Assembly (NCBI RefSeq): GCF_037902255.1
Contig: NZ_CP147990.1
Span: forward strand, 1,950,001 to 1,982,000
Direction: 5' to 3'
Source: Candidatus Electrothrix sp. GW3-4
GTDB lineage: Bacteria; Desulfobacterota; Desulfobulbia; Desulfobulbales; Desulfobulbaceae
DNA: 32,000 nucleotides
Shown one piece after another: positions 4,731-25,962 of the stretch. The stretch's first letter is position 1. Each line of letters starts with the position of its first letter. The translations under genes and the position numbers were made by a program. The notes below the pieces were generated by a model that was not told the origin of the DNA, searched no databases, and was given only the letters and a program-made list of their open reading frames with translations.

Positions 4731-5453
4731 ATGCCTGAAACACCCCTGCCCCTTATACTCTCCCTTGAAACCGCTACCGGTTGCGGCAGTGTTGCCCTGA
4801 CCAAGGGCGGGGTCAGAAACGGCAAGATCCTTGCCGAGGCCACGGCCCAACCAGAGATCACCCACTCAAGGCGCCTTCTTGGCTCTGTGGAGTGGGTTAT
4901 GCAGGCAGCTGGTATTGATTGGGATAAACTGGACGGAATTGCCATCAGTCTCGGTCCTGGCTCATTCACAGGATTACGAATCGGCATGGCAGCAGCCAAA
5001 GGCATTGTCTTGGCCAGCCAAAAGCCCCTTATCGGTGCGCAGACCCTGGATGCCATCGCCCTCTCCTGCCCGCTCATTGATCGCCCGCTCTGGTGTTTGC
5101 TTGATGCCCGAAAACAAGAGGTCTACGCAGCTTGCTATCAGGCTGGCCCCTCTGGCCTGCCTGAGCGATGCAGCTCGGTTGAGGCTCTTCTCCCAAAAAA
5201 TCTGCTTAAAAAGATCAATGGCCCAGCCCTCCTTGCTGGCCCTGGGGTGAAGGAATATCATGATCTCTTTGCCGCTCAGCAATTACTGCAACTTATCCCG
5301 CCAGCTCTAACGAGTCCCTGTGCGGCGAGAATAGGTTTTCTGGCTGCCGGGCAGCTCCTTTGTGGAGAAACCCTGGATCCGGCAACCATCGCTCCCATGT
5401 ATGTCCGGGCCTCGGAGGCAGAGGTGAATCTGCAAAAAAAGAACGGCTCTTAG
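4731..5453 (+). CDS. tsaB: tRNA t6A37 threonylcarbamoyltransferase complex subunit TsaB (YeaZ)
   Basis: The protein contains ILSLETATGCGSVAL and GIAISLGPGSFTGLRIG, which are typical TsaB/YeaZ motifs. At 240 aa it is the usual size. Confidence 0.88.
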   Translation: MPETPLPLILSLETATGCGSVALTKGGVRNGKILAEATAQPEITHSRRLLGSVEWVMQAAGIDWDKLDGIAISLGPGSFTGLRIGMAAAKGIVLASQKPLIGAQTLDAIALSCPLIDRPLWCLLDARKQEVYAACYQAGPSGLPERCSSVEALLPKNLLKKINGPALLAGPGVKEYHDLFAAQQLLQLIPPALTSPCAARIGFLAAGQLLCGETLDPATIAPMYVRASEAEVNLQKKNGS

Positions 5454-8912: not shown

Positions 8913-11126
8913 ATGTTTTCTCATCTCCGAAAACGGTGCAGGATCAGTCCGCTCACTCTCACAGGGGGGCTGCTTACGCTTTTTTTTATCCTTCTCGCTC
9001 AATACGACCCCGCCCTTCTCCATGAATTACGGCTGAAATCCTTTGATCTTTTTCTCCGTCATAGCCCTGCCCCGTTATCCGACCCCAGAGTTATTATTGT
9101 TGATATTGATTCAGCGAGCCTGGAAGAACTCGGGCAATGGCCTTGGCCCCGTAAACGCATTGCTGAGCTCCTCAAAAAAATCACCTCAGCAGGCCCTGCT
9201 GTTGTCGGCCTTGACATGCTCTTTGCCGAGCCTGACAGTAGTTCACCCCATCTTCTGGCCACCTTGGACGGTATGGAAAATGCCCCGGAGGCGGTGCGAG
9301 ACTATCTGCAAGCTCTTCCTGATTATGACCAATCGCTTGCCCGCGTCCTGGATCAGAGTCCTGCTCCTGTGGTGCTGGGCTCTGTCTTTACCAACTCAAT
9401 CAAAGGGGCGACTCAGGGAAAGAAAAATCTCCCTCGAAAAGGCAACTTTCTTTTTTATGGCCATAATCCGTTGCCCTTTCTCTTTCCATTCAGCGGGGTG
9501 GATTCCAGCCTGGAGATATTTGAGCGCACTGCCCAAGGAATAGGTTTCTTAAATATTATCCCGGATCAGGACTCCATTATTCGCAACCTTCCCTTGGTGG
9601 TTAATTATAGAGAGGAGGTCTATCCCAGCCTGGTCCTCTCCATGCTGCGGGCTGCCACGGGACAAGAAAACATCGAGTTAGAAACGGATCAAAACGGTGT
9701 CCGCGCTGTGCAAATAGGGGGGTACCGAATTCCCACCAATATGTACGGAGAACTGATCATCAATTTCAGCGGTCCTGCCCGGAGCCTGCCCTATGTCTCT
9801 GCCCACGATATTTTATCCGGCCAATTTGATCCTACCCTTTTTCGGGATGCCTATATCCTGATCGGGACCTCTGCCCCTGGTCTTTTTGATCTTCGGGCAG
9901 TGCCTACGGATCGGGTCTTTCCTGGAGTTGAACTGCACGGGCATGCCTTGAATACCATTCTCAGTCGAAATTTTCTTCATCGGCCTGAATGGGCCAAGGG
10001 ATCTGAGCTCCTCTATATCTGTTGTATAAGCCTGTTCCTGATTCTGGTGCTCTCTCGGCTGGAGGCAGCCAAAGGCGCCCTGGTGGTCCTTCTTCTTACC
10101 CTCGTATCGTCTGCCTTTGCGCACTGGTGCATGCATCATTACCATCTCCTGATTGATCTGGTCTACCCGCTGGCAGCCACCTGGCTTCTGTTCACGGTGC
10201 TCACCTTTTATAATTTTATTGCCGGAGAACGGAAAATACACCACCTTCGTTCCACCTTTTCCCATTATCTTTCTCCAGAGGTGGTCAAGGAGCTGCTCAA
10301 AAAACAGGGTGATCTTGTCCTGGACGGTGAAGAACGGGAGTTAAGTATCCTGTTTTCCGATATCCGCCGTTTCACCTCGTTGGCAGAAAAGATGTCGCCA
10401 GACGATCTCTGCGCCTTTCTCAATGAGTATCTCACCCCCATGACCGAGGCAGTGATGGAACGACGGGGCACTGTGGATAAATTTATCGGTGATGCTATTA
10501 TGGCCTTCTGGAATGCCCCTCTGGATACACCGAATCATGTCTCTCATACCTGCGAATGTGCCCTGGCCATGCTCAAGGAGCTTGCAATACTGAACAGCTC
10601 GTGGAGCAAACGAGGCCTTCCTGAAGTTCGGATAGGTATCGGTATTCACTGCGGGGTGGCCCGGGTCGGCAATATGGGCTCTCGGCAGCGTTTTGATTAC
10701 ACGATCATGGGCGATTCAGTCAACCTTGCCTCTCGACTTGAAGGGCTAACCAGGCTCTATGGCGCTGATATATTGGTTAGTGATGCAGTCTATACCATTT
10801 TACAGGAAAGCGATTTTTTCTTTCGCCAGATTGACACGGTCAGGGTCCTTGGCAAATCAGCTCCAGTGACCCTGTACCAGCTCATAGGCCTGCGCGACAA
10901 GCAGACAGTTGAGCGTCTCCAAGAGGTGAAAGCGTATTACGCGGCCCTTGAGCTGTATAACACAGGGGCGTTTTTCCAAGCGGCCAAAGCCTTCCAGATC
11001 CTGAAAAAAGACTATCCCAGCGATCTCCTGTATGAAGTCTATCTTGAACGATGCATCCGGATTGCAAAAAATCCCCCAGCGCAATGGAACGGGATTACCG
11101 ATATACAGAGAAAAAAAGGCGATTGA
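8913..11126 (+). CDS. CHASE2-domain class III adenylate/guanylate cyclase
   Basis: The order is an N-terminal TM helix, a periplasmic CHASE2-like region (IVDIDSASLEELGQWPWPR, FLNIIPDQDSIIRNLPL), three TM helices, then a cyclase catalytic core (LSILFSDIRRFTSLAE, DKFIGDAIMAFWNAP, GIHCG). A short TPR-like tail ends the protein. Confidence 0.85.
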   Translation: MFSHLRKRCRISPLTLTGGLLTLFFILLAQYDPALLHELRLKSFDLFLRHSPAPLSDPRVIIVDIDSASLEELGQWPWPRKRIAELLKKITSAGPAVVGLDMLFAEPDSSSPHLLATLDGMENAPEAVRDYLQALPDYDQSLARVLDQSPAPVVLGSVFTNSIKGATQGKKNLPRKGNFLFYGHNPLPFLFPFSGVDSSLEIFERTAQGIGFLNIIPDQDSIIRNLPLVVNYREEVYPSLVLSMLRAATGQENIELETDQNGVRAVQIGGYRIPTNMYGELIINFSGPARSLPYVSAHDILSGQFDPTLFRDAYILIGTSAPGLFDLRAVPTDRVFPGVELHGHALNTILSRNFLHRPEWAKGSELLYICCISLFLILVLSRLEAAKGALVVLLLTLVSSAFAHWCMHHYHLLIDLVYPLAATWLLFTVLTFYNFIAGERKIHHLRSTFSHYLSPEVVKELLKKQGDLVLDGEERELSILFSDIRRFTSLAEKMSPDDLCAFLNEYLTPMTEAVMERRGTVDKFIGDAIMAFWNAPLDTPNHVSHTCECALAMLKELAILNSSWSKRGLPEVRIGIGIHCGVARVGNMGSRQRFDYTIMGDSVNLASRLEGLTRLYGADILVSDAVYTILQESDFFFRQIDTVRVLGKSAPVTLYQLIGLRDKQTVERLQEVKAYYAALELYNTGAFFQAAKAFQILKKDYPSDLLYEVYLERCIRIAKNPPAQWNGITDIQRKKGD

Positions 11127-11146
11127 GCTGTAAAGGAGATTAAGAT

Positions 11147-11752
11147 ATGACTCTCATGATTTTTGGCTGGATTCTCTGGTGCGCCCTGCACAGCCTGCTC
11201 ATCAGCAGCAGGGTGAACCAATGGGTCAAGGAGCAGGGAGGCGTACTGCAAGGAAGCTACCGGCTGTTCTACAGCCTGTTTTCCGCCCTCAGCCTCATTC
11301 CATTGCTCTGGTACCAGTACAGTCTGCCCCAGGAGGTGCTTTTTTCCTGGGCTGGCTGGTTGCGCATCCCCCAGGGAATACTCCTGGCCTATGCCCTGGC
11401 CATGCTCTATGGGGGCAATAAGGTTTATGATGTGAACTACCTTATTGGAATCAGACAGTGGCAAAGCTATCAACGAGGAGAGGATATTTCTCCCCTGCCT
11501 TTCCGCTGTGAAGGGGCCCTGGCCTATGTGCGCCATCCCTGGTACAGCAGTGGTCTGCCCATCCTCTGGACCGTGGGCCCGCTCACGGATGCCAATCTGC
11601 CTGCCCGGATTATCCTCACCTGTTATCTCATTATTGGTACCCTGCTGGAGGAACGGAAGCTGGCCAAAGAACTCGGAGAGCCCTATCTGCGCTATCAAAA
11701 GCAGGTGCCCATGCTGATCCCCTGGAAAGGACGGGTAAAGCTCTCTGATTAA
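11147..11752 (+). CDS. membrane methyltransferase family protein (ICMT/PEMT/NnrU-like)
   Basis: This is a polytopic membrane protein with RHPWYSSG and a C-terminal LLEERKLAKELGEPYLRYQKQVPMLIPW, the pattern of isoprenylcysteine/phospholipid methyltransferase-like proteins. A strong RBS (AAGGAG) precedes it, and it starts 20 nt after the cyclase stop. Confidence 0.7.
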   Translation: MTLMIFGWILWCALHSLLISSRVNQWVKEQGGVLQGSYRLFYSLFSALSLIPLLWYQYSLPQEVLFSWAGWLRIPQGILLAYALAMLYGGNKVYDVNYLIGIRQWQSYQRGEDISPLPFRCEGALAYVRHPWYSSGLPILWTVGPLTDANLPARIILTCYLIIGTLLEERKLAKELGEPYLRYQKQVPMLIPWKGRVKLSD

Positions 11753-11756
11753 TGTT

Positions 11757-11793
11757 TCATCGGACGCCCTTACCCTTTCGATGGGTATTTTTT
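11757..11793 (+). terminator. weak candidate intrinsic terminator
   Basis: A short stem pairs CATCG (11758-11762) with CGATG (11779-11783) and is followed by GGTATTTTTT. The stem is only 5 bp, so support is weak. Confidence 0.3.
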
Positions 11794-11956
11794 ACACATA
11801 TTAACCAGAACTTCAAAGAGATAAAACGCGCCACCCTCACAGTCTTTTCTTGACTCTGGTGCTCTTTCATGTCATTACACCTGAGAAAAATAAGGCCGCA
11901 GGAAGTACACCAACTCTTCCCTGCTGCTGAACCGATCAACCACTCAGGTAAAAAAA

Positions 11957-12859
11957 ATGCCAATAACTCTCTCGCTGCTCAGAAAGGTCATCACCGTGGG
12001 GATGATATTCCTTCTTCCAACAACCAGCTTTTCCATTGACAGCAGCACACTGCTCCAATTTCTAGGAACCGAACATACGCCCCGCGTTTCCTTACTACCG
12101 ACGTCTCTCCCTCTTGCTGACAGTTTTAAACCGGGCACAAACCCGTATGCTGGCACTGTGGCCCAAATACAGGGAACAGCCTATGTCTATCATCAGGGCG
12201 GAACCGTTGCCTATAAACTGATGACCAATATCCCCCTCTTCAGCGGTGACACCTTGGTTACCGGAGAAAAAAGCAGGATCACCCTACAGATGGCCGATGA
12301 TACGATCCTGAGCCTTGCAGCCCAAACCAAGCTGACCATCGACAAATCTCTCCCCAGAATGAAGGTACGGGACACTGTTCTCCAGCTGTTCTTCGGCAGG
12401 ATCCGAGCTCTGGTGAAAAAACTCGCAGGGGAATATATAATCAACACACCGAACTCCAGTGTTGGTGTGCGAGGAACAGATTTTGCAGTGGTCGTAGCAC
12501 TTGCTCCAAAGAGCAGGATGGCAGGATGGAGAAAGAAGGTGCCAGCAGGTTTGCTGACAGCGGTGCTTACAGGCCAAGCCCCCTCAACAGTGGAGCTTGT
12601 GGGTCGTTTTGGATCCTCAATTATGGTGAAGCCATTCTCCGTTGCCGGAATAGCTACAGGAAGCCGCGCTGAAGAGGCCATGTATGTCGGACCTGCCGCA
12701 ATCCCTTTATTGCAGCAAATCGCCCCCCAAGAGGCCTTCCAATCCTACCTTCCGAAAAAGCCCGCTCCAGCAGCTGCTCCCTGTTGGCCCTTTTCCGGCA
12801 CAGCCAAGGGCTTAACATATTTTAAGGTATGCACACCAGGAGAAAAACCGAGCAGCTAG
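11957..12859 (+). CDS. FecR-domain protein (exported or anchored)
   Basis: The N-terminus has a signal/anchor sequence (VITVGMIFLLPTTSF). The core reads GTAYVYHQGG...LFSGDTLVTGEKSRITLQMADDTILSLAAQTKLTID...INTPNSSVGVRGTDFAV, which is typical of the FecR/PF04773 fold. Confidence 0.75.
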   Translation: MPITLSLLRKVITVGMIFLLPTTSFSIDSSTLLQFLGTEHTPRVSLLPTSLPLADSFKPGTNPYAGTVAQIQGTAYVYHQGGTVAYKLMTNIPLFSGDTLVTGEKSRITLQMADDTILSLAAQTKLTIDKSLPRMKVRDTVLQLFFGRIRALVKKLAGEYIINTPNSSVGVRGTDFAVVVALAPKSRMAGWRKKVPAGLLTAVLTGQAPSTVELVGRFGSSIMVKPFSVAGIATGSRAEEAMYVGPAAIPLLQQIAPQEAFQSYLPKKPAPAAAPCWPFSGTAKGLTYFKVCTPGEKPSS

Positions 12860-12863
12860 CCAC

Positions 12864-12907
12864 GGACCAAAGTAACATAGCCTGACTTTGGACCTTTAAC
12901 CTTTTTA
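12864..12907 (+). terminator. candidate terminator in a convergent gap
   Basis: The stem pairs GGACCAAAGT (12864-12873) with ACTTTGGACC (12885-12894) at 9 of 10 positions. TTTAACCTTTTTA follows. The U-tract is present only for the plus-strand transcript. Confidence 0.5.
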
Positions 12908-13927
12908 CTGCCTGCGCGGGTCAAAGGCCTCCTGGAGGGCCTCACCAATAAAAATTAAAAGAACAAGGGTACCAACCAAAACAGTAAAGGTCGTTAAGGA
13001 GAGCCACCAGGCCTCGATATTGGCCTTGCCCTGATTGAGCAGCTCGCCCAGGCTAGGGGTAGGCGGTGGTACACCAAGGCCAAGAAAATCCAGACTGGTC
13101 AGGCCAAGGATGGCCCCAGACATGCGAAAGGGCAAAAAGGTGATGACAGGGGTCATGCCATTGGGCAGGAGATGACGGTACATAATGGTCAGATTCCCCA
13201 CGCCCAAGGCCTTGGCTGCCTTGACGTACTCCATATTGCGGCCTTTCAGGAATTCAGCCCGCACGTAATCGGATAAACCCATCCAGCCAAACAAGGAGAA
13301 GAGGAGCAAGAGGAGCAGAACACTGGGTTTAAAAATCGAAAAAAAGATGATCAGCAGGTAGAGCTCTGGCATCGCGCTCCAAATCTCGATAATGCGCTGA
13401 AAAAATAAATCCGTCTTACCACCAAAATAGCCCTGCACTGCTCCTGCTATTATGCCAACAAAAGTGCCAATGAGGGTCAGGGCAAGGCCGAAAAGGATAG
13501 AGAGCCGGAAACCATAGATTAATCGGGCCAGGACATCCCTGCCCCGGTCATCTGTGCCAAGAATATTATCCTGAGAGGGCGGTGACGGAACAGGCTGGTC
13601 AAGCCCAAGGTTAATAGAGGCATAGCCATAGGGGTTCAAAGGAAAAACAACCTTATTGCCATCAACCGTCAATTTTTCCAGGATATAAGGATCCTGATAA
13701 TCGGTTTCGGTCTCAAAATCGCCCCCGAACACGGTTTCTGGATAGACCTTGAGCAGGGGAAAATAATATTGGCCCTGATACTTGACCAATAAGGGTTTAT
13801 CATTGCTCAAGACCTCGGCAAAAAGCGACAGTCCAAAAAGAAGGCTGAAGATCAGCAGACTGTAATAGCCTCTTCGATTTTTCTTGAAGTTCCTCCATCT
13901 GCGAGCCGCAAGCGTCTGTTTATTCAT
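12905..13927 (-). CDS. yejE: peptide ABC transporter permease YejE-like
   Basis: The protein is collinear with E. coli YejE as I remember it: RWRNFKKNRRGYYSLLIF, NDKPLLVKYQGQYYFPLLK, LGTDDRGRDVLARLIYG and a FIGEALQEAFDPR tail. Confidence 0.88.
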   Translation of the reverse strand: MNKQTLAARRWRNFKKNRRGYYSLLIFSLLFGLSLFAEVLSNDKPLLVKYQGQYYFPLLKVYPETVFGGDFETETDYQDPYILEKLTVDGNKVVFPLNPYGYASINLGLDQPVPSPPSQDNILGTDDRGRDVLARLIYGFRLSILFGLALTLIGTFVGIIAGAVQGYFGGKTDLFFQRIIEIWSAMPELYLLIIFFSIFKPSVLLLLLLFSLFGWMGLSDYVRAEFLKGRNMEYVKAAKALGVGNLTIMYRHLLPNGMTPVITFLPFRMSGAILGLTSLDFLGLGVPPPTPSLGELLNQGKANIEAWWLSLTTFTVLVGTLVLLIFIGEALQEAFDPRRQ

Positions 13928-13942
13928 AGCGCGACGCCCCTC

Positions 13943-14992
13943 TTATTGAACCTTTTCAAAACTGATCCTGGGATCAACCCAGACATAACTGAGATCAGAG
14001 AGCAGTCTGGCAATTAACCCGATCAGGGTGAAAAAATACAGGGTTCCCAACACCACCGGATAATCCCGATTAAGGACAGAATTATAGGCTAATAACCCCA
14101 TACCATCCAAGGAAAAAATTGTCTCTATGAGCAGGGCTCCAGTAAAAAAGGCGGTAATAAAGGAACCAGGAAAGCCGGTAATAATCGGGATAATGGCATT
14201 GCGAAACACATGCCGGTACAGGACCTGATTATCGCCAAGTCCCTTGGCCCGTGCCGTCATAACGTACTGCTTACGAATCTCTTCCAAAAAGGAGTTCTTG
14301 GTCAGCATGGTCATAACAGCCAAGCTCCCCACCGAGGTGGAAATAATGGGCAAAACCATATGCCAGAGATAATCCAGGATCCTTCCTGTCCAGCTCAACT
14401 CTGCCCAGTTATCCGAGATCAGCCCACGTAAGGGAAAAATATTCCAAAAACTGCCCCCGCCAAAGAGGACTATAAGGAGGATTCCCAGGACAAAGCCGGG
14501 GATGGCATAGCCGATAAGAATGATCGTGCTGGTCATCATATCAAAGCGGGATCCATCCTGAACCGCCTTGCGGATCCCAAGGGGAATGCAGACCGAGTAC
14601 ACAATGAGAAAGGTCCAAAGCCCTAAGGACATGGAAACCGGCATCTTGGAAATAACCAGTTCCGCAACCCCCTTCTGATGATAATAGGATTCACCAAAGT
14701 CAAAAACCAAGTACGATCCCATCATGGAGAAAAAACGCTGCAGGGGCGGTTTGTCAAAGCCATATATTCTTTTCAGCTGCTCAATCCGCTCCTGATCAAG
14801 CCCCTGTTTCCCCTGGTAGAGGCCCCCACGTCCGCCACCTGCCTCGCCACCTGCCCCTCGACCCTCAATCTGGGCCATCATCTTTTCCACTGGCCCGCCG
14901 GGCACAAACTGGGTGATGACAAAGGTGATAAACATGACCCCGAACAAGGTGGGGATCATGAGCAGAAATCGTTTGAGAATGTACAGACTCAC
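13943..14992 (-). CDS. yejB: peptide ABC transporter permease YejB-like
   Basis: The N-terminus is YILKRFLLMIPTLFGV, and the EAA-loop region reads YVMTARAKGLGDNQVLYRHVFRNA. The GTG start overlaps the upstream stop as GTGA at 14992-14989. Confidence 0.88.
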   Translation of the reverse strand: MSLYILKRFLLMIPTLFGVMFITFVITQFVPGGPVEKMMAQIEGRGAGGEAGGGRGGLYQGKQGLDQERIEQLKRIYGFDKPPLQRFFSMMGSYLVFDFGESYYHQKGVAELVISKMPVSMSLGLWTFLIVYSVCIPLGIRKAVQDGSRFDMMTSTIILIGYAIPGFVLGILLIVLFGGGSFWNIFPLRGLISDNWAELSWTGRILDYLWHMVLPIISTSVGSLAVMTMLTKNSFLEEIRKQYVMTARAKGLGDNQVLYRHVFRNAIIPIITGFPGSFITAFFTGALLIETIFSLDGMGLLAYNSVLNRDYPVVLGTLYFFTLIGLIARLLSDLSYVWVDPRISFEKVQ

Positions 14993-16530
14993 AGTTCCAC
15001 CACCGCCACAGAACCTCCTCTTCTGGGATCACCAACCCCACCGACCCCAGGCATGACCGCATGCACCCCACCGAAGTAAACATTCCGATCATCCCAGAGA
15101 TTTATCGGCACCTGTTTCTGTACTGCAGCGATCGCCTGGGCGTCAATCCCCGGCTCAATCTGCAATACACCTCCATCGTCGTCCCAGTGCAGCCTCGGCG
15201 CCTGGACCGCTTCAACCAGATCCCGTTTGAAATCGACATACTGCGTTAGGACCTGGCTTAATGCCGTTCTGATCCGCTTAGAGCCACCGCTCCCAAAGAC
15301 CAGTTTGACCTCATTCTCATAGAGGAGCGCAGAGGGTGACATCATGGAGCGGACCCGTTGTCCCGGCGGTTCGGCATGGAAGCCATCTGGATGGAGATCA
15401 TCTTCGCCCATCATATTATTGAGCATAATCCCGGTACCCGGCACAAAATACCCCGAGCCTTCCCCGTTGGAACAGGTCATGGATGCAATATTGCCCCGAC
15501 TGTCGGCAACCGAGATATGGGTGGTGCCGCGGCTGAACCGGCGCATCCTCCCTACGCTTGCCTCGCTATCCCTCCCTGCGATAAAATCAGCCAGGGTTTG
15601 AGGGCTGTCAACCCCCTGCTTCCGTAAGCGCTCCACCTCCTGCATAAGCCCCAAGGTGCGCAGCAGATATTCCGGGCTGCCCCATTGTTCAAGAGACCCA
15701 GCTACCTCTCCAATCTTCTCTTGTAAGAACAAAGACAGGCCGACCAGAGAACCCCCTAAATCCGGGGCGGTCAGCAGGGTATGGCCATGATAGGGTACCC
15801 GCAGGGGTTTGCGCTCAATTACCCTGTAGGCCCCAAGGTCTTCTGCCGTCAGTAGGCCGTCACCGTTGCGCATTTCCTGATCTATCAGGTGGGCTATCTC
15901 ACCACAATAGAACTCCTTGCCCTTATCCTCGGCAAGCTGCCGAAGGAAGGCAGCCAGTTCAGGGACCTCCAGGGTTGCCCCTGCCCGAAGAAGGGCTCCA
16001 TCAGGTTCATAGAGGGTGCGCCCGGGGGCCGTCATAGTAAGAATAGGTCGCAACAGCCGGATGAATTCGGCCTGAAAGGCATTGATCCTATGTCCCTCGG
16101 CCAAAATTACAGCTGGTTCAATGACCTCGCTCAGGGGCATCCTGCCCAGCCGTTCATGGATATGGAGCAATCCCTTCAGGGTACCGGGAACAGCCACAGA
16201 GCCTAAGCCGATATTAAACTCCTGGTCTGATCCGCCAAATTCCACCTTGATCGGATAAAAATGCGGTTCCAGCTGGGAGGTCTCCAGGCCGAGGCCAGGG
16301 GTATCAACAAAAAAATCAAAAAATATCTCCTGCTGATCCGCTGTCCGGGCCAGGGCAAAACCGCCTCCGCCCAAACTGGTCAGCATCTGCTCTGCAACGG
16401 TACCGGCAAAACCGGCTGCAACCACTGCGTCAAAGGCATTGCCGCCTGCTTCCAGGATGAGGGCTGCTGCCCCGGTCACCGCCTCATGCCCGGCAGCGAC
16501 TACTGCTTTCTTCTTCATCTTTCCCTTCAT
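14989..16530 (-). CDS. gamma-glutamyltransferase family protein, with no signal peptide
   Basis: Motifs include GGNAFDAVVAAGFA, the autoprocessing/catalytic TTHISVADSRGN and GSGYFVPGTGIMLNNMMGEDDL. I chose ATG 16530 (TAATG overlap with the ybdK stop). The ORF track starts 18 nt upstream, at 16548. The N-terminus is polar (MKGKMKKKAVVAAGH), so the protein is probably cytoplasmic. Confidence 0.85.
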   Translation of the reverse strand: MKGKMKKKAVVAAGHEAVTGAAALILEAGGNAFDAVVAAGFAGTVAEQMLTSLGGGGFALARTADQQEIFFDFFVDTPGLGLETSQLEPHFYPIKVEFGGSDQEFNIGLGSVAVPGTLKGLLHIHERLGRMPLSEVIEPAVILAEGHRINAFQAEFIRLLRPILTMTAPGRTLYEPDGALLRAGATLEVPELAAFLRQLAEDKGKEFYCGEIAHLIDQEMRNGDGLLTAEDLGAYRVIERKPLRVPYHGHTLLTAPDLGGSLVGLSLFLQEKIGEVAGSLEQWGSPEYLLRTLGLMQEVERLRKQGVDSPQTLADFIAGRDSEASVGRMRRFSRGTTHISVADSRGNIASMTCSNGEGSGYFVPGTGIMLNNMMGEDDLHPDGFHAEPPGQRVRSMMSPSALLYENEVKLVFGSGGSKRIRTALSQVLTQYVDFKRDLVEAVQAPRLHWDDDGGVLQIEPGIDAQAIAAVQKQVPINLWDDRNVYFGGVHAVMPGVGGVGDPRRGGSVAVVEL

Positions 16531-17669
16531 TACTGCTCTCTCAGCCAATAATCATTGCGCAGGCTGGTGATCATCTCTTTAAATTTTTTCGGCTCGCCCC
16601 CTGCCAACAGACGCTGTCGATCAGCACTGGTGCCCTGCTCCAAAATGTTGTACAGATCCTGAAGATAACCAGTTGTACCAAACCGCTCAGTCACAGGATG
16701 AATGAGCTGAAGCAATCTGTCTGCAGCCTGACGCAGGGGCAGATCAGCACCACCCAATAATCCGTAGATATCCACAAAACGGCCGCCGAGCCCATGCCGG
16801 GCTGCCTGCCATTTATTACATTTCAACATTTGCAGACTGACCGGACGGGAGGAAAGATTTGTTTCTGCAAGAAAGGCGGCCAATGCCTGAATAGCAGCTG
16901 TCAAGCCCAGGATAGAATAAAACCGGTAGGGCAGATCGCAGATACGAATCTCCACCGTACCGAATCCAGGACTCGGCCGTACATCCCACCAAAGATCCTT
17001 GAGCCGCTCAATGGCCTGATGCGCATGCAGATTATTGACCTCATCAATGTATCCCTGCCAAGTCCCCATATAGCCGGAGATACCCGCTAAAGGGAGGACC
17101 TCGAACAACTTAGTCCTATAGGATTGAAAGCCTGTGTCTCGACCACAAAAAAACGGTGAAGAGCAACTCAGGGCGAGTAAAATAGGCAGGTAGGGCTGGA
17201 TGATGTCGCAGACCCGGATCGCGGTGTCTCTGTCGGGCATACCAACATGGACATGCATCCCCTGGGTAATAAACTGACGACCAACCTGTTGCAGTTCATC
17301 CATGATGCGGCGATAGCGCTCCCCCTTACTCAAAAGCTGGGCCGAGGGGTCGGCAAAGGGATGCAGACTTGTCGAATAGAGATAGCAGTCCTCATGCACG
17401 GCAGTGTCTTCCACTAAATGTATAATGCGGCTGAGGTCATCGGCTACATCATCAACATGTTCACAGACACCGGTCTGGAGCTCGATAATGGATTGGAGAA
17501 ACTCTGGAACAATCCTGTCACTGCCTTCAGGAACCAAATCTTCCAAGATGTTGTTGACCCGTGGCACCAAGTCCAGGCTCTGACGATCAACAAGCTGAAA
17601 TTCCAGTTCAACCCCAAGTGTGTATTCCTGGCTGCCATTAAAAACAGGCGTAAATGCGTTATCTTGCAT
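16530..17669 (-). CDS. ybdK: carboxylate-amine ligase YbdK (GCS2 family, glutamate-cysteine ligase-like)
   Basis: TLGVELEFQLVD lies near the N-terminus, followed by GMHVHVG, and WWDVRPSPGFGTVEIRICD is the YbdK/GCS2 signature. I chose ATG 17669, which has AGGAAA upstream. The ORF track extends to 17738. Confidence 0.85.
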   Translation of the reverse strand: MQDNAFTPVFNGSQEYTLGVELEFQLVDRQSLDLVPRVNNILEDLVPEGSDRIVPEFLQSIIELQTGVCEHVDDVADDLSRIIHLVEDTAVHEDCYLYSTSLHPFADPSAQLLSKGERYRRIMDELQQVGRQFITQGMHVHVGMPDRDTAIRVCDIIQPYLPILLALSCSSPFFCGRDTGFQSYRTKLFEVLPLAGISGYMGTWQGYIDEVNNLHAHQAIERLKDLWWDVRPSPGFGTVEIRICDLPYRFYSILGLTAAIQALAAFLAETNLSSRPVSLQMLKCNKWQAARHGLGGRFVDIYGLLGGADLPLRQAADRLLQLIHPVTERFGTTGYLQDLYNILEQGTSADRQRLLAGGEPKKFKEMITSLRNDYWLREQ

Positions 17670-17686
17670 AGATCTGATTTCCTGAT

Positions 17687-18862
17687 TCACGATTGCTGCA
17701 GGTATCGCAAGGCATGAACGGCAACCGTGGCCAGCCATCGGCTTCCGCAGGGTAACACCTTTTCGTCAAAATCAAAGGCTCCAGAATGGGAAGGACCGAC
17801 ATGGGGATCTCTTGCTGCTCCAAAGCGAACCATAGTTCCAGGAATTTTCTGCTGATAAAAAGAGAAATCTTCCCCGCCAAGACTGGGAACCCCCTGAGAA
17901 ATAACCCGATCAATCCCCACCACCTCCAGGGCCGCCTGTCGGGCAAGAGCGCAGGAAGCAGGATCATTCACCACAGCGGGTAACCCCTGCTGGAGACTAA
18001 AATTGATCTCTGCATTGCACATTTCCTCAAGCCCGCGTACCACGCCCTCCATTCTCCTGATAATTTGCCCCCTAGTGTCTGGATGGGTGCTGCGGATCGT
18101 TCCCTCAAGCACAGCCTTACCAGCTATGACATTATGCACGGATCCTGCTGCGATCCGCCCAACGGTGATCACTCCTGGATGTGCAGGATTAATCATGCGG
18201 GATACCATGGTCTGGATATTCAGCACCAGACTCGCACCAACCACAACCGCATCAATGGCTTCATGGGGTCTGGCTGCATGCCCACCTTGGCCGCAGATGT
18301 TAATGAGAAAGGGATCAGCATAGGAGCAGATAACCCCCTGATCAACAGCAAAATGTCCGAGTGAATTATGGGTGTCAATATGACCGCAGAAAATCATCTC
18401 CACATCCTGAAGGCAGTTATCGGCAATCATAGCAGCAGCCCCAGTTCCTGCCTCTTCTGCTGGCTGAAAAAGAAGCACCACCCTGCCCCCCATCTCATCA
18501 AGGGCAGTATGTTGAAAAAGCAACTCTGCTGCGCCGAGCAACATGGCCGTATGCCCATCATGTCCACAGGCATGCATCACTCCAGGCTGCTGAGAGGCAA
18601 ACTCAAGACCGGTTTCTTCAATAACGGGCAGGGCATCCATATCAGCCCGCAGGGCCACACAGGGCCCTGACCCTTTTCCCAGTTCCGCCCTGATGCCGGT
18701 TCCACCAGCCAATCCTGCTCTGTAGGGTATCCTTAATCTTGTAAGCTCCCTCTCAATCAGGGCGGATGTCTTTTTTTCCTGAAAGGCGAGCTCGGGGTGT
18801 CGATGCAGCCTGCGGCGGATTCCCAGGATTCGCTGTTCCTGCTCCTCAGTCACAGTAAACAA
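17687..18862 (-). CDS. M20D family amidohydrolase (N-acyl-amino-acid / hippurate hydrolase-like)
   Basis: Motifs include RRRLHRHPELAFQEKKT, ALRADMDALP, MHACGHDGH and the usual dimerisation-domain layout. The start is TTG at 18862, with AGGA 6 nt upstream, only 2 nt after the MORN gene stop. Confidence 0.85.
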   Translation of the reverse strand: MFTVTEEQEQRILGIRRRLHRHPELAFQEKKTSALIERELTRLRIPYRAGLAGGTGIRAELGKGSGPCVALRADMDALPVIEETGLEFASQQPGVMHACGHDGHTAMLLGAAELLFQHTALDEMGGRVVLLFQPAEEAGTGAAAMIADNCLQDVEMIFCGHIDTHNSLGHFAVDQGVICSYADPFLINICGQGGHAARPHEAIDAVVVGASLVLNIQTMVSRMINPAHPGVITVGRIAAGSVHNVIAGKAVLEGTIRSTHPDTRGQIIRRMEGVVRGLEEMCNAEINFSLQQGLPAVVNDPASCALARQAALEVVGIDRVISQGVPSLGGEDFSFYQQKIPGTMVRFGAARDPHVGPSHSGAFDFDEKVLPCGSRWLATVAVHALRYLQQS

Positions 18863-18864
18863 GG

Positions 18865-20925
18865 CTATTCCTGCTCAACCAATTCATCGTTTTTGAAAAT
18901 CCCCTTCACAACACGACCATCTGCATATTTGATCGTTCCGGCCCCGTTCCTGCGCCCGGACTTAAACATCCCCTCATACACCGTGCCGTCGGCAGAGGTT
19001 AAGCGGCCGTATCCGTGAGGCAGGTCATTCTTGAATGTTCCTTTGTATTTTTTCCCGTTTTTATAGATCAATTCCCCTTTCCCTGAGAAAAATCCGTCGG
19101 AAAATTGTCCTTTATAATAGCTGCCATCTGGAAAAATATAGGTTCCCTTGCCTTCAAAGACCCCTTTGACAAAATCGCCTTCATAGGAAGAGCCATCAAG
19201 ATAGGTAAAAGCACCTTTTCCCTCGCGTTCGCCCTTACGAAAGCTCCCCTTGTACTGACGACCATCAGCAAAGACATAGGTCCCTTGGCCATGAAACTTG
19301 CCTGCAGAGAATTCGCCTTCATAGCTTTCTCCGTCTGCCAGCTGCATGGTGCCCCAGCCCTCCATTTTTCCCTCTCTAAACTCTCCCTGATAATGGGAAG
19401 AATCAGGCAAGTCAACCTCTCGTACCCCGCTGAAGGAATTTTTTCCTTTTTCTTCCTCCTCGTTGCGAAAGGAGTAGGGGATTTCATTGATCAGCACAAG
19501 CCGTCCTTCTTCCTCTGCTTCCTCTGCTTCCTCCTTTCCTCTTTCCTTACCTTCCTCCGCAAGATAAGGAGGAAGTTCTTCTTCACTGATATCAAGCTGC
19601 TCCACAGGAGATTCATCTTGATTATCTTTAACAGAGGCAACAGAGCCCTGAATACGTATCTCTGTCTCTTGACGCTCTATGTCTTCTTCAATCGGTGGTT
19701 CAAGAGTATCAGCAGTAACCACCTCTTCCTCAATCAGGCTATCCACCTCATCCATTTCATGAACTTCATAAACTTCATGCTTCTGTTCAAATTTCTGCTC
19801 AGATTCAACAGGCGCACCTCTCTCTTCAGCTGATACCTGGGCCTGGTGAGTAGCGATTTCTTCCTTCTTTGTGAGGGTGGCACGGGGAGTAGCTGCAAGT
19901 GAAGAGGGGGTGGCTTCTTTATCACTCTGCCTTTTCTGTTCAGGCTGGGCAGGGGGCACCACCGCTGTTTTGGCTCGTTTTTTTCGGGGAATCTGGCCTG
20001 CTGGCTCGTTCTTGGAAAAAAGGCCTTCGTAAACCCTGCCATCAGCATATTTCAGCTTTCCTATACCAACCCTGATCCCCTTTTCCCACTGCCCCACATA
20101 GCGAGAACCGTCGCCGTAGGTCATGGTGCCTTCTCCGTGTGGCAATCCATTGAGAAGATCACCTTGGTACTGTTGCTGAGCTTCAGACCAGGTTATGGTT
20201 CCTTGGCCGGTAATTGCTCCATCAAGAAAGGTCCCGATATAGGTCCGACCGTTCTTCTCCTTTAAGGTACCTCGTCCGTTGTACAGATCATTTTCAAAAT
20301 ACCCTTCATAGCGGGTGCCGTCAGGCATTTGCAGAATCCCGTATCCCTGACGAACCTTGCCGACATAGCTCCCGATATAGACAGTGCCGTCAGCATAACG
20401 GCGTACCCCCTTGCCACCTGGATGGCCGTCACGGAATTCCCCTTCAAAGCTACTTCCGTCAGCCATGATCATCTCGCCCTTTCCGTGCAGAAAATTGCTC
20501 CGAAAATCACCAACGTATTTTCGGCCGTCAGGGTAGATCAAAACACCTTTGCCATGAAATTTCCCCAGCTCAAATTCTCCCTGATAACGACGGCCGTCAG
20601 CTTCTTTCAGGATCCCTTCTCCATCAATAACACCGTTTTTAAAGGTTCCCTTATAGGAACGGCCATCACGTGTCTTCAATATACCGAAACCGTGAAATTT
20701 TCCCCGTACAAACTCGCCGTCATACTGCATGCCATCCGGCGTGATCAGCCTGCCGCGTCCCCAGAGAAAACCCTTTTTAAATTCACCTTCGTACTCCCGA
20801 CCATTAGCACTTCGTAACTTTCCTACACCGTTCTTGCAGTCTCCAGAAAGACAACCGGCCGAGCAGGTCAGGGCTGTTGCGCATTGAATAACTAAGGCAG
20901 CAATCAGTATCTTGGTACTTCGCAT
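18865..20925 (-). CDS. exported MORN-repeat protein (about 12 N-terminal and 8 C-terminal repeats, acidic central linker)
   Basis: About 20 repeats of Y(E/K/Q)G(E/T/D)Fxx(G)xxhGxGxxxxxDG recur every 23 aa. The N-terminus MRSTKILIAALVIQCATALTCSAGC looks like a signal or lipoprotein-type peptide. ATG 20925 is preceded by GGGAG, and the ORF track starts at TTG 20928. Confidence 0.85.
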   Translation of the reverse strand: MRSTKILIAALVIQCATALTCSAGCLSGDCKNGVGKLRSANGREYEGEFKKGFLWGRGRLITPDGMQYDGEFVRGKFHGFGILKTRDGRSYKGTFKNGVIDGEGILKEADGRRYQGEFELGKFHGKGVLIYPDGRKYVGDFRSNFLHGKGEMIMADGSSFEGEFRDGHPGGKGVRRYADGTVYIGSYVGKVRQGYGILQMPDGTRYEGYFENDLYNGRGTLKEKNGRTYIGTFLDGAITGQGTITWSEAQQQYQGDLLNGLPHGEGTMTYGDGSRYVGQWEKGIRVGIGKLKYADGRVYEGLFSKNEPAGQIPRKKRAKTAVVPPAQPEQKRQSDKEATPSSLAATPRATLTKKEEIATHQAQVSAEERGAPVESEQKFEQKHEVYEVHEMDEVDSLIEEEVVTADTLEPPIEEDIERQETEIRIQGSVASVKDNQDESPVEQLDISEEELPPYLAEEGKERGKEEAEEAEEEGRLVLINEIPYSFRNEEEEKGKNSFSGVREVDLPDSSHYQGEFREGKMEGWGTMQLADGESYEGEFSAGKFHGQGTYVFADGRQYKGSFRKGEREGKGAFTYLDGSSYEGDFVKGVFEGKGTYIFPDGSYYKGQFSDGFFSGKGELIYKNGKKYKGTFKNDLPHGYGRLTSADGTVYEGMFKSGRRNGAGTIKYADGRVVKGIFKNDELVEQE

Positions 20926-21088
20926 CAAAACTCCCTGTGTTACTTAACGTAGCGTCACGTGGCTCAGGAATTTTCCTGATTAAAATTATTTTCAGTGAAC
21001 CACCCTAGCCAAAGGCTGAGGAGGCCCAAATAGCATTTTTGCGGCCTTTGCAAGCAAGCTGTTGAGCATAAATTGCTCTATAAGGTGC

Positions 21089-21337
21089 TCAGCATTTTTT
21101 TTCAACTCGACTGATAAACTCTTGGGCGGTTTCAGGATCACCAATTTCCTCAACCAGAGCGGTGGTCAACTCAATGATGCGGGCAGCAACAACAGGGCCA
21201 TTGCGTTGCCATTGTTCAACATAATCGTAAAGGATCATGCCAGCAGCTGGTCCGATCGCGCCAGCAAGTGCCTGTTCAATATCCTGGAAAATCTCCTGAA
21301 TTTCAGGAGGATAACTTCCGCGCGCATAATCCGTCAT
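21089..21337 (-). CDS. hypothetical small acidic protein (82 aa)
   Basis: A good RBS (GGGAGAAAAGG) lies directly before ATG 21337. The sequence is helical and acidic (EIQEIFQDIEQALAGA...). The overlapping plus-strand ORF 21062-21367 looks less protein-like. I recognised no family. Confidence 0.5.
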   Translation of the reverse strand: MTDYARGSYPPEIQEIFQDIEQALAGAIGPAAGMILYDYVEQWQRNGPVVAARIIELTTALVEEIGDPETAQEFISRVEKKC

Positions 21338-21461
21338 CCTTTTCTCCCGTGCTCCGCTGAAACCTGATAATCTCAGCGTTTTCCGTGTATACTCGCCACA
21401 GTCATAGCCTGAGCTTTCAATATATCCTTAATGGATGAAAATTCAGACAGTTTCCAGCAAG

Positions 21462-21492
21462 AAAAAACACGATTTACCCCAGAGCAGTAAAT
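21462..21492 (-). terminator. weak candidate terminator after argJ
   Basis: On the minus strand, ATTTAC pairs with GTAAAT (plus coordinates 21472-21477 and 21487-21492). CGTGTTTTTT follows. The stem is a short, AT-rich 6 bp. Confidence 0.35.
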
Positions 21493-21499
21493 TCTCGCT

Positions 21500-22717
21500 T
21501 CAGGATCGATAATCAGCATTAATCTTCACGTAGTCACAGGTCAAATCTGTGGTAAACACTTCCGCACGTTCGCTTCCGTCCCTCAGATCGACAGTAACGG
21601 TAAATTCTTTTTGCTGCAACACCTTAGAAGCTTTCTTTTCAGCTTCTTTTCCGCAGCCTAGGCCATTCTTAACCATAACGACATGATCAAAGGCTATAGA
21701 AACCCGCTCCGGCTGAAACTGACATCCCGATCGACCAAGCGCTGCTATAATTCGGCCCCAGTTCGCATCCTCACCAAAAAAAGCTGTCTTAACCAGGGCT
21801 GAGTTGGCAATGGTCTGGGCACCGCTCATAGCCTCATCCTTGCTTCGTGCGCCAACCACTCGAATAGTGACCACCTTGGTTGTTCCTTCCCCGTCTGAAA
21901 CGATCTGCAAGGCAAGGTCTTTAAAAATCTTATGCAATGCTTCAGTGAAAATCTTGACGCCATCCTGATTTTCTTCATCAAGCCAAGGAGTTTCCGCAGC
22001 ACCGTTCGCCATAACCAGCACGGTGTCATTGGTTGAGGTATCCCCATCCACTGTTATCAGATTGAATGACTGTTCGACCCCGGCACTAACGATCGCATTC
22101 AGCACAGAAAAAGGAATTTGGGCATCGGTCACAACAAAGCAGAGCATAGTTGCCATATCCGGCATGATCATACCAGCCCCTTTGGCAACGCCAAGTAAAT
22201 TCACCTCAACCCCATTGATTTCCACACTAGCAGAAGAGGTCTTCGGCACAGTATCTGTGGTCATAATCGCCTGGGCAAGATCATCAAAGCCATCTTCCCT
22301 CAATGAGGAGACAAGCTCGGGCACCGCCCGAACAAAGGGATCCGTATTCAGCTGCTCACCAATAACGCCAGTAGAGGCCACCTGGACCAATTCTTCATCA
22401 ATGGCCAAGGCATCAGCGGCCAGGCCTCCCGTACGCAATGCCGCTTCCATACCCTGTTCACCAGTGCAGGCATTGGCGTTGCCGCTGTTCACCAACACTG
22501 CCTGGGCCTTACCGTTGAGCAGACGTTTTTTGCCCAGCACCACAGGGGCAGCCTGAACAGTATTTGTGGTAAACATGCCGACGGTCACAGCCGGAACCTC
22601 GGAATAAATCAGGCCGAGATCAAGTCGCCCCTGATAACGAATGCCTGCCTGAACAGCAGCTGCTGTAAACCCTTTGACCTTCATTACACGCTCAATGTAA
22701 AATTTTTCCTGCTTCAC
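21500..22717 (-). CDS. argJ: bifunctional glutamate N-acetyltransferase / amino-acid acetyltransferase ArgJ
   Basis: Motifs include KGFTAAAVQAGIRY, NSGNANACTG and the autocleavage site ATMLCFVVTDA, ending in INADYRS. The start is uncertain: either GTG 22717 or ATG 22684. Confidence 0.9.
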   Translation of the reverse strand: MKQEKFYIERVMKVKGFTAAAVQAGIRYQGRLDLGLIYSEVPAVTVGMFTTNTVQAAPVVLGKKRLLNGKAQAVLVNSGNANACTGEQGMEAALRTGGLAADALAIDEELVQVASTGVIGEQLNTDPFVRAVPELVSSLREDGFDDLAQAIMTTDTVPKTSSASVEINGVEVNLLGVAKGAGMIMPDMATMLCFVVTDAQIPFSVLNAIVSAGVEQSFNLITVDGDTSTNDTVLVMANGAAETPWLDEENQDGVKIFTEALHKIFKDLALQIVSDGEGTTKVVTIRVVGARSKDEAMSGAQTIANSALVKTAFFGEDANWGRIIAALGRSGCQFQPERVSIAFDHVVMVKNGLGCGKEAEKKASKVLQQKEFTVTVDLRDGSERAEVFTTDLTCDYVKINADYRS

Positions 22718-22931: not shown

Positions 22932-23708
22932 TCACGGAATCAATCGGTTGATCGAATTCCAAACCTGAGCTGCCCATTCATAAATCATTCGCTGTGAAAG
23001 GCCCAGATTCTCGCAGGTGGGCACAAAGGAGGATGAGACCAGCTGATTATTATCTTTGATAAGAAAGTCTGTTGGTGCCGCAAGAGGACGCGTACCAGCC
23101 TCTTTGAACAATTTCATAGCTCGTTCCATATGCGCAGCAGAGGTCACTAAAATAAAGGGCATATCTTTGAGCATAGGCTGCAGCATTTTGGCCTCTTCTG
23201 CAGTATCATGGGGACGTTCCTCAATGACCAGTCGTCCGCTATCCATACCTAATGATTCAGCGACCCTGCCTGCCACGGCTGCATTTGCCCGGGGGTCTTG
23301 ATTTGCCCCGCCGCTGAGAATAAGAAAGGTTTGTGGAAGCTGCCGTTGCAGACGAATCCCCTCAACCAAGCGGTATAACGACGCGGTATCCAGTTGATTG
23401 CTTTCTGGCAGTGCAGGATCGGTGGTATTTGAACTCCCAAGGACGACAACAAAGCGAATTTGCCGTTGCTCTGTCTCGGCTATTTTTTCGATATCCAATG
23501 GAGGATATCTTCTCTCAAGCTCTTCTAACTGCTGACGCGCAGGCAGGCCATAACCAAGGACAAGAAAAAGGCAGAGCGTTATCAGCAAAGAGAAAGTGGC
23601 CAGCTTGCGTAAACGAAAAAGTAAAAAAAACAGTGCCAAAAAAATACAGACCACACCTATGGGTAACGGCGCGAGAAAAGGCACCAAAAAACGAACAAAT
23701 TCAATCAT
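22932..23708 (-). CDS. DUF218 / YdcF-ElyC family membrane protein
   Basis: Two N-terminal TM helices are followed by the DUF218 core (VVVLGSS, ILSGG, FILVTSAAHMERA). The RBS AAGGTG sits in a 31-nt A-rich spacer after the upstream ligase gene. Confidence 0.75.
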   Translation of the reverse strand: MIEFVRFLVPFLAPLPIGVVCIFLALFFLLFRLRKLATFSLLITLCLFLVLGYGLPARQQLEELERRYPPLDIEKIAETEQRQIRFVVVLGSSNTTDPALPESNQLDTASLYRLVEGIRLQRQLPQTFLILSGGANQDPRANAAVAGRVAESLGMDSGRLVIEERPHDTAEEAKMLQPMLKDMPFILVTSAAHMERAMKLFKEAGTRPLAAPTDFLIKDNNQLVSSSFVPTCENLGLSQRMIYEWAAQVWNSINRLIP

Positions 23709-23739
23709 ATTTTTTCACCTTAATTTTTTTCCCTTTTTT

Positions 23740-25524: not shown

Positions 25525-25962
25525 TTTCAAAGGTATGTATTACCAAGCTACCAACTACGACAAGCGATTTGGCCGTGCTCCGACCTACGCTCAATGAGCA
25601 TCTAATCAGTACATCACATTTCGCCTCTCCCCTGCGGAAGCGAACCAGGAAAGAATATTAGGCAGGTTCAAGGGCAGAGATCCAGCAGCCTTTCCTTAAC
25701 ATTCTCTGAGCCAACGCTGGCTTGAGAGAGTTATAGGATTATATGCTGTATTCTTTTCCGATGCAATGCGGAATCCCCTTCATACAATATTGACGTGCTG
25801 GGTTGTGCCCATTTCACTTGAAGTATTCTTGCGACATAAGTAGACTGCGCCAGGGCGAAGAGCAGGAGACCCATCCTGCCTCTTAAAAATGACTGCAACG
25901 AGCTGTCATCGCTACCGAATCCTGGCAAGCAAAAAATCTCCATATGGTGACTCCACCGACGT

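Follow-up and report, generated by a model that had tools for sequence, protein, structure and literature searches.

Why should a cable bacterium keep genes for an exported MORN-repeat protein, an M20D-type amidohydrolase, a YbdK-type ligase, a leaderless GGT homologue and two YejB/YejE-type importer permeases in one unbroken run? The question is raised by a 32-kb stretch of DNA, called the window below, of the marine cable bacterium Candidatus Electrothrix sp. GW3-4 (family Desulfobulbaceae), which belongs with other cable bacteria and with sulfur-disproportionating bacteria to the order Desulfobulbales. The six genes form one operon. An earlier note on this DNA took the six-gene set as the unit; comparison across the order places the conserved core in M20D-YbdK-GGT, and relatives carry genes for an AvtA-type transaminase and a DUF4177 protein as well. 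The working put forward here, tentatively and at rather less than even confidence, is a cytoplasmic make-and-break of a gamma-glutamyl-type (omega-amide) small peptide or amide, with uptake added in the Desulfobulbaceae.

The earlier note described six same-strand genes running from 20925 down to 12905 with almost no spacing, and open reading frames (ORFs) lie at exactly those places on the minus strand, with five junctions that span -4 to +17 nt when read in the sequence. The MORN stop codon TAG (18867-18865) is parted by 2 nt (cc) from the TTG start of the M20D gene at 18862, which is preceded at 6 nt by an AGGA that still lies in the last part of the MORN coding sequence. The M20D stop TGA (17689-17687) stands 17 nt before the ybdK ATG at 17669, the GGT and yejB genes overlap in GTGA (14992-14989), and yejB is separated from yejE by 15 nt, all as had been claimed. 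The proposed overlap of ybdK with the GGT gene in TAATG (16532-16528) can likewise be read in the sequence, but the start of the GGT gene is ambiguous: the NCBI model of 509 aa is consistent with the next in-frame ATG at 16518, four codons downstream, and a start there would give an 11-nt gap to ybdK instead of the overlap. A second possible ATG of ybdK lies upstream at 17738; the start at 17669 is favoured because most homologues have 371-379 aa. The same gene ends were given by an independent gene caller in two public contigs that carry these genes, and a consensus scan of the operon strand, crude as it is, returned no promoter-like or terminator-like match at the junctions, so that internal promoters and terminators were set aside. 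The single co-directional, tightly coupled unit is thus borne out by the ORF map and the junction reading.

Conservation was assessed with a GGT alignment, against which every GTDB species was scanned through a single genome; the best 80 loci were kept, and all of them (80/80) belong to Desulfobulbales. The window proteins were mapped onto the loci and every neighbouring ORF was clustered; the gene-neighbourhood counts given here and in Table 1 refer to 83 species-level Desulfobulbales loci, each denominator being the loci with enough flank. In >90% of loci M20D, YbdK and GGT are adjacent, and they stay so where GGT identity is as low as 57%; the earlier note's own alternative, that the adjacency is accidental and shared by no relative, clearly fails. 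Under a lenient start-codon rule, the start-stop overlap of ybdK with the GGT-like gene recurs in 64 of 74 loci and that of the GGT-like gene with yejB in 34 of 42, and DUF4177 and M20D genes lie within 30 nt of each other in 33/38. In relatives, avtA is translationally coupled upstream, and its product, with 633 bits, clears the cutoff of the valine-pyruvate transaminase equivalog (467). YejBE genes follow the GGT gene in Desulfobulbaceae, whereas FeoAB or GlnS genes stand there instead in Desulfocapsaceae. From these gene orders, the ancestral operon is predicted to be avtA-MORN-DUF4177-M20D-ybdK-ggt-like, to which yejB-yejE would have been appended in Desulfobulbaceae, and the six-gene form of Electrothrix is best explained as a trimmed derivative that has lost avtA and DUF4177. 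The exact six-gene layout without these two genes occurs in six loci (five Electrothrix, one Desulfobulbaceae). Search by tblastn for avtA or DUF4177 elsewhere in the window gave chance-level matches only.

Several variants of the cluster were seen. In Ca. Electrothrix gigas, an insertion of ~2.8 kb with a 457-aa transposase-like ORF (L004 11694-14400) parts the GGT-like gene from yejB and breaks the translational coupling, with yejBE left intact (91% and 90% identity). In two Desulfocapsaceae-type loci (L044 and L082), the GGT-like gene comes directly after avtA-DUF4177, with neither M20D nor YbdK, and YbdK alone is missing from five further loci; the trio is therefore not obligatory. A metagenomic protein of 869 aa (P0241) joins M20D (residues ~1-395) to a GGT-like part (residues 403-866), and could be a genuine fusion or the product of a lost stop codon, a sequencing error or a gene-calling artefact. 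A second candidate fusion in locus L064 was rejected, being two same-frame ORFs parted by a stop codon. No locus of Electronema, the freshwater cable-bacterium genus, is among the best 80 GGT matches, in which the more distant Desulfocapsaceae are present; Electronema may lack the cluster, or the cluster may have escaped the peptide patterns of the scan. No annotated plasmid-borne copy was matched by tblastn at E<1e-40. A literature search for this gene combination, for MORN proteins in cable bacteria and for GGT in Electrothrix or Desulfobulbales found nothing relevant.

All six family calls of the earlier note hold in Pfam and NCBIfam profile searches, and none of the enzymes is reassigned to an unrelated family (Table 1). 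The M20D protein carries the motifs MHACGHDGH and QPAEE, identical to those of ILL2 (1xmb), and YxeP (1ysj) matches it equally strongly; it falls below the specific equivalogs CpsA and DoeB2. The best solved matches of the YbdK protein are 1tt4 and E. coli YbdK (1r8g), both over the full length, and with the latter it shares the motifs ELE, HVHVG and WDxRPS...GTVExR; unlike here, E. coli ybdK is not linked to a ggt or M20D gene. It lies under the equivalog cutoffs of both NF010039 (carboxylate-amine ligase, 306 against 371 bits) and NF010043 (glutamate-cysteine ligase, 285 against 409). The GGT-like protein scores 309.6 bits with the bona fide GGT equivalog TIGR00066, under the cutoff of 357.85. 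Because all three enzymes fall short of the equivalog-level models, no curated family names their substrates, and neither a closer solved structure nor a named equivalog was found for any of them.

Table 1. Operon genes, associated genes of relatives and flanking elements: positions in the window, supporting matches and number of Desulfobulbales loci with the gene
Feature	Position	Strand	Evidence or description	Loci
MORN-repeat protein, exported, 686 aa	18865..20925	-	PF02493 295.8 bits, 14 significant stretches	45/58
M20D-type metal amidohydrolase, 391 aa, cytoplasmic	17687..18862	-	TIGR01891 364 bits (cutoff 153.75), PF01546, PF07687	63/68
YbdK/GCS2-family ATP-dependent carboxylate-amine ligase, 379 aa	16530..17669	-	PF04107 162 bits; TIGR02050 252 bits (cutoff 176.4)	71/76 (directly upstream of GGT-like gene)
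GGT-family Ntn-hydrolase without leader, 513 aa	14989..16530	-	PF01019 304 bits over residues 25-506	
YejB-type ATP-binding cassette (ABC) importer permease, 349 aa	13943..14992	-	NF011712 451.4 bits (cutoff 445), PF00528; ~6 transmembrane segments	40/75 (after GGT-like gene)
YejE-type ABC importer permease, 340 aa	12905..13927	-	NF011596 410.8 bits (cutoff 439, just below), PF00528, OppC_N	34/68
AvtA-type transaminase gene				37/57
DUF4177 gene				51/64
~45-nt block upstream of MORN start	20926..20970	-	includes GGGAG ribosome-binding site	
Promoter-like match	20985..21012	-	TTGGCT-16-AATAAT, sigma-70-like, 9/12 positions; sole one on operon strand	
Spacer before convergent FecR-domain gene	12860..12904	.	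45 nt, imperfect hairpin	

The GGT-like protein retains the catalytic core of the E. coli and Helicobacter pylori enzymes, with Thr336 in GTTH (T391 in E. coli) and the Gly415-Gly416 oxyanion hole (G483-G484). Among 151 subfamily sequences, Gly416 never varies, and 135 have Gly at position 415, the others Ala or Ser. The absence of a leader, claimed earlier, is confirmed: ahead of the region that matches residue 23 of the mature E. coli enzyme there are only six residues, and the N-terminus is not hydrophobic. Since there is no room for a signal peptide, the protein is cytoplasmic, like the intracellular GGT-family protein YwrD of Bacillus subtilis (review PMC8062742). Its AlphaFold model (pLDDT 84) gives Foldseek TM-scores of 0.76-0.81 to the GGT precursors of E. 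coli and B. licheniformis, and on this model the GGT fold is confirmed. The model is equally close to GGT-fold enzymes of other chemistry, namely cephalosporin acylase (2nlz), LmbA (6j3a) and HpxW (5hft). The Ntn-hydrolase fold is shared with these three (TM-score ~0.8 to 2nlz and 6j3a) and with CapD (3g9k), at an identity of just 21-26%, and the fold does not guarantee GGT activity.

The exported MORN protein announced by the earlier note has a typical signal peptide with a hydrophobic N-terminus, and a signal peptide is predicted in the homologues too. Its 20 repeats come down to 18 by pattern and to the 14 significant Pfam stretches. The signal peptide is followed by a first repeat with C-x4-C, then 11 N-terminal and 7 C-terminal repeats in all, and between the two blocks an acidic low-complexity linker (residues ~301-480, window 19486-20025) that is Glu-rich, with 26% Asp+Glu. 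In ~50 homologues the signal peptide precedes a conserved Cys-x4-Cys (CxEGDCxNG) inside a degenerate first repeat, as would suit a periplasmic protein, possibly capped by a disulfide. Complete MORN ORFs measure ~650-720 aa in the cable-bacterium group (with mechanically assigned starts) as against 553-664 aa in other Desulfobulbales, and the acidic linker appears expanded in the former. The earlier view that the module is headed by this protein overstates its role, in that the gene is missing from several otherwise intact clusters. MORN was also considered as a stand-in binding protein for YejBE and rejected, being conserved in Desulfocapsaceae clusters without YejBE and absent from some clusters that have it.

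On these grounds, the following working may be proposed. In Desulfobulbaceae, YejB and YejE would bring in a peptide-like compound, the GsiA/YejF-type ATPase and the binding protein being encoded elsewhere. The leaderless GGT-family Ntn-hydrolase would then cut the side-chain amide bond of the compound, M20D would split the leftover dipeptide or N-acyl amino acid, and YbdK, with ATP, would re-ligate a carboxylate (glutamate) to the freed amine, for example cysteine, in a salvage loop akin to a three-step portion of the gamma-glutamyl cycle. In Desulfocapsaceae the enzyme trio would work on an internal pool, with no linked permease, and the exported MORN protein would be co-translated with the operon. 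The anatomy of the operon, the families of its proteins, their cytoplasmic or exported location and their conservation are established, and it is inferred from there on what class of compound is handled, in which order the steps run and how import is tied to them. Support comes from the tight junctions, the conserved trio and overlaps, the kept catalytic Thr and Gly-Gly, and the match of YejB above its model cutoff; a little is added by the M20D::GGT ORF P0241 and by a GsiA/YejF-type ATPase that adjoins a gene of the GGT subfamily in one outgroup genome. The design has precedents in GisABCD-Ggt of Staphylococcus aureus, an importer of glutathione for a Ggt in the cytoplasm (PMC10355420), and in YejBEF of Agrobacterium, whose binding protein YepA is unlinked (PMC9790009). 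The import-plus-remodelling module of the earlier note survives in its coupled unit and its families, while the confinement of YejBE to Desulfobulbaceae makes import an add-on rather than the core.

Several findings weigh against the proposed make-and-break of a gamma-glutamyl-type compound. The donor-pocket arginine R114 of E. coli GGT is replaced by Phe73 in an ungapped alignment, and this Phe is invariant in the local-family alignment and occurs in 141 of 151 subfamily sequences. The role of R114 is to bind the alpha-carboxylate of the donor, and the E. coli R114L variant is inactive (PMC8062742). Three further pocket positions are changed (Q430 to Met, D433 to Glu, S463 to Met) and S462 is kept, the non-canonical residues being Phe73, Met373, Glu376 and Met396. 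Loss of the conserved arginine is shared with extremophile GGTs of Geobacillus and Picrophilus (PMC8062742), which carry Ser there and His/Thr for the Ser-Ser pair, whereas the GGT-like subfamily has Phe/Met/Glu/Met together with motifs of its own. Outside the order, all eight outgroup contexts (8/8) lack YbdK, and in none does an M20D gene adjoin the GGT-like gene; three of them are cyanobacterial, one is from Thiolinea, two are related to a gammaproteobacterial sequence, and there are two others. A binding protein or ATPase is encoded within 10 kb of none of the loci; YejA and the fused ATPase YejF are missing from the window and from the 10 kb around ~40 YejBE-bearing loci, though they could be encoded elsewhere in the genome, and YejBE is itself missing from about half of the loci. 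The cluster holds no glutathione synthetase, cyclotransferase or oxoprolinase gene, and module content varies across loci. In addition, genes farther from the operon (that of ArgJ upstream and those of a CHAD protein and a ParA-like protein) likewise keep their arrangement within Desulfobulbales, so that part of the synteny may reflect relatedness and not function. The gamma-glutamyl substrate suggested by the earlier note is accordingly plausible and not secure, given the pocket and the solitary state of the subfamily in other phyla.

The subfamily to which these pocket changes belong was collected as 150 clusters at 50% identity from 1.8 billion representatives, down to 38% identity to the query. 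The changed pocket residues vary little or not at all in the local family and are held across the 150 wider clusters. The signature motifs of the subfamily are DFF, TSNGEG, NNM[LM]GE and SMM; they occur in no solved structure, and identity to PDB entries is 21-30% at best. With a profile built from distant members, the subfamily was traced to filamentous cyanobacteria and to gammaproteobacteria, Thiolinea among them, where the signature is kept and the leader is absent in all members. The protein is thus assigned to a large, uncharacterised, cytoplasmic GGT subfamily, which within the sample is linked to YbdK and M20D in Desulfobulbales only. Cyanobacterial ggt genes have been described as unstudied in a 2023 review (PMC10295655). 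In one of the eight outgroup contexts (L090 6001-9753), the GGT-like gene is followed after 262 nt by an orphan fused double ATPase (614 bits to GsiA, 518 bits to YejF) with no permease genes nearby, which mirrors the orphan permeases of Desulfobulbaceae.

It might be asked whether any pathway exists here at all. The genes could be functionally unrelated housekeeping genes (GGT-like amidase, aminoacylase, YbdK, orphan permeases and a periplasmic MORN protein) that are co-transcribed from a shared promoter. The solitary GGT genes of the eight outgroup contexts and the conserved order of the flanking genes would fit this, as would the two loci that keep GGT with neither M20D nor YbdK, and modules do come and go: MORN is absent from 13 of 58 loci, YejBE from about half, and AvtA and DUF4177 were lost in Electrothrix. 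This explanation is nevertheless doubtful, since the trio stays adjacent at low GGT identity, the start-stop overlaps are conserved, the chemistries are complementary (one ligase and two amide hydrolases), and M20D and GGT are joined in one ORF.

If a common pathway is granted, it may not involve import. YbdK could be the synthetase of an endogenous gamma-glutamyl compound, either a gamma-glutamylcysteine thiol or a gamma-glutamyl dipeptide, whose homeostasis would be completed by turnover through the GGT-like and M20D enzymes, YejBE being incidental. The core trio does occur without a linked permease in Desulfocapsaceae, the amino-acid-supplying transaminase gene avtA is coupled upstream in relatives, and YbdK is a GCS2-family protein with 285 bits to the glutamate-cysteine ligase model. 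Against these stand a YbdK score under every equivalog cutoff and the weak gamma-glutamylcysteine synthetase activity of E. coli YbdK. The divergent GGT pocket is also hard to square with a standard gamma-glutamyl donor, and the GGT/YejB overlap in most loci argues against an incidental neighbour. An internal compound of this kind is therefore considered unlikely.

The same pocket invites a bolder reading, judged improbable to a like degree, in which a Desulfobulbales-specific cytoplasmic pathway is built around a GGT-fold Ntn-hydrolase of a new functional class, for which ordinary gamma-glutamyl donors are no substrates. The change of Arg114 to Phe may then provide a hydrophobic pocket, and the enzyme may, with YbdK and M20D, make and recycle an undescribed amide-linked metabolite, for which a modified low-molecular-weight thiol or sulfur carrier is a candidate. 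The periplasmic C-x4-C MORN protein and the orphan YejBE may link such a pathway to the periplasm.

Recycling of peptidoglycan stem peptides would give the permeases a more definite part: YejBE would import them, the GGT-like enzyme would cut the bond of gamma-D-glutamyl-meso-diaminopimelate (gamma-D-Glu-mDAP), M20D would cut L-Ala-D-Glu or the deacylation product, and YbdK would re-ligate. M20D enzymes normally release L-amino acids, which fits this scheme poorly, and the core trio persists without YejBE. No AmpD, NagZ, LdcA or Mpl gene is present in any locus, and the GGT subfamily is solitary elsewhere. A NamZ gene does lie 5 kb off in the window, but on the opposite strand, and outside Electrothrix it is not syntenic with the cluster. 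What speaks for stem peptides is the acylated alpha-amino group of their D-Glu, with which a pocket lacking contacts to free alpha-substituents would make sense, and the unusual conservation of YejB and YejE (75-93% identity across relatives as against 58-78% for GGT). The GGT-family enzyme CapD, whose structure 3g9k is among the matches, acts on gamma-D-glutamyl bonds, and YejBEF of Agrobacterium is a muropeptide importer served by an unlinked binding protein, YepA (PMC9790009). On balance, stem-peptide recycling is decidedly unlikely. Amine gamma-glutamylation of the Puu type, in which YbdK would protect an amine, AvtA or another enzyme would modify the conjugate and the GGT-like enzyme would remove the glutamyl group, has its ligase-plus-hydrolase logic, the transaminase coupled upstream in relatives and known designs behind it (E. 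coli Puu; Streptomyces GlnA4, PMC6529630), yet it is very improbable, in that known pathways use glutamine-synthetase-like ligases and class I amidotransferase-like hydrolases instead of YbdK and GGT, AvtA scores as a valine-pyruvate transaminase and is absent from the Electrothrix operon, and the cluster holds no oxidase or dehydrogenase.

For the make-and-break reading, the closest described system is GisABCD-Ggt of Staphylococcus aureus, which imports glutathione intact for a cytoplasmic Ggt that cleaves both its reduced and oxidised forms (PMC10355420). Like it, the present cluster combines genes of an Opp/Dpp-class importer with that of a leaderless GGT homologue in one operon. GisABCD is a full transporter (ATPase, two permeases and a lipoprotein binding protein) and its Ggt is bona fide, whereas here there are two permeases and a Phe in place of the Arg; the cluster, known from its genes alone, adds YbdK, M20D and MORN, and outside Electrothrix AvtA and DUF4177 too. 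In comparison with YejABEF, the E. coli importer of microcin C and peptides, YejB scores above the cutoff of its NCBI model and YejE just under that of its own; no locus has yejA or yejF within 10 kb, and the permease genes are coupled to that of a cytoplasmic hydrolase. With the gamma-glutamyl cycle (GGT, Cys-Gly dipeptidase and gamma-glutamylcysteine ligase), the cluster shares one member of each of three enzyme types. It departs from the cycle in lacking glutathione synthetase, cyclotransferase and 5-oxoprolinase, in the cytoplasmic location and divergent pocket of its GGT, in a dipeptidase candidate of M20D and not M20A, M17 or M1 type, and in a ligase of the weakly active YbdK type.

Upstream of the operon, the ~45-nt block before the MORN start is conserved in an alignment of five cable-bacterium-group loci (four Electrothrix, one Desulfobulbaceae) and is a candidate promoter or operator region. 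The promoter-like match beyond it is weak, such sites being no more numerous in the region than in shuffled sequence. At the 3' end, the spacer hairpin has a fold energy of -20.5 kcal/mol with a weak z-score of -1.8; it could serve as a two-way terminator, and the consensus terminator scan gave no match in the spacer. A riboswitch or leader RNA before MORN was sought and rejected, Rfam being empty at gathering thresholds across the window and returning chance-level matches only in 20800-21600. Recent transfer of the operon from a foreign source was likewise rejected, as its region has a GC content of 0.48-0.57 against 0.45-0.57 across the window. Two other Electrothrix loci (L003 ~5290-5400 and L009 ~1960-2010) share an intergenic G+C-rich repeat-like element (…GGGCGAACACAGAGGTTCC…) upstream of MORN, which is not in the window.

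Just upstream of the operon, an 82-aa ORF (21089-21337, minus strand) matches only the C-terminal part of a DUF8082 protein of 173-211 aa, whose full-length form adjoins a PatA_N-domain gene in other Desulfobulbaceae (L083 3831-4466; L085 2885-3406). The short form is kept in Electrothrix at 76-90% identity, and because of this conservation it looks like a retained truncated gene and not one in decay. Further upstream (22932-27045) lie a DUF218 gene, an AMP-binding (acyl-CoA-synthetase-like) gene and a divergent lysine-2,3-aminomutase-like radical SAM gene; this order is kept in several Electrothrix genomes, and the genes may make up a beta-amino-acid module that has nothing to do with the operon. 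Convergent on the 3' end of the operon (8913-12859, plus strand) are genes for a CHASE2-sensor adenylate/guanylate cyclase, an NnrU-like membrane protein and an exported FecR-domain protein, a set conserved in Electrothrix only. Beyond them, the IspG/GcpE gene (5506-6585, plus strand) overlaps by 4 nt a gene for a NamZ-type exo-beta-N-acetylmuramidase (6582-7757, plus strand), with lpxD next, so that this peptidoglycan-recycling enzyme is coupled to isoprenoid and lipid A genes.

The cluster is built of common enzyme families, which limits surprise. YbdK-type ligases and leaderless GGT homologues are, all the same, widespread orphan enzymes, and here they are physically linked in one order, with start-stop overlaps that persist down to 57% GGT identity, and are joined to an amidohydrolase and peptide permeases; the cluster gives concrete candidate substrates for three orphan enzymes at once and an entry point to the physiology of two such families. 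Genetics might be attempted in cultured relatives such as Desulfobulbus, Desulfogranum and Desulfolithobacter. The signature of the GGT subfamily also covers the sampled cyanobacterial ggt genes. For cable bacteria, the cluster points to a conserved peptide- or thiol-related module, and avtA and DUF4177 are the parts that their lineage has shed.

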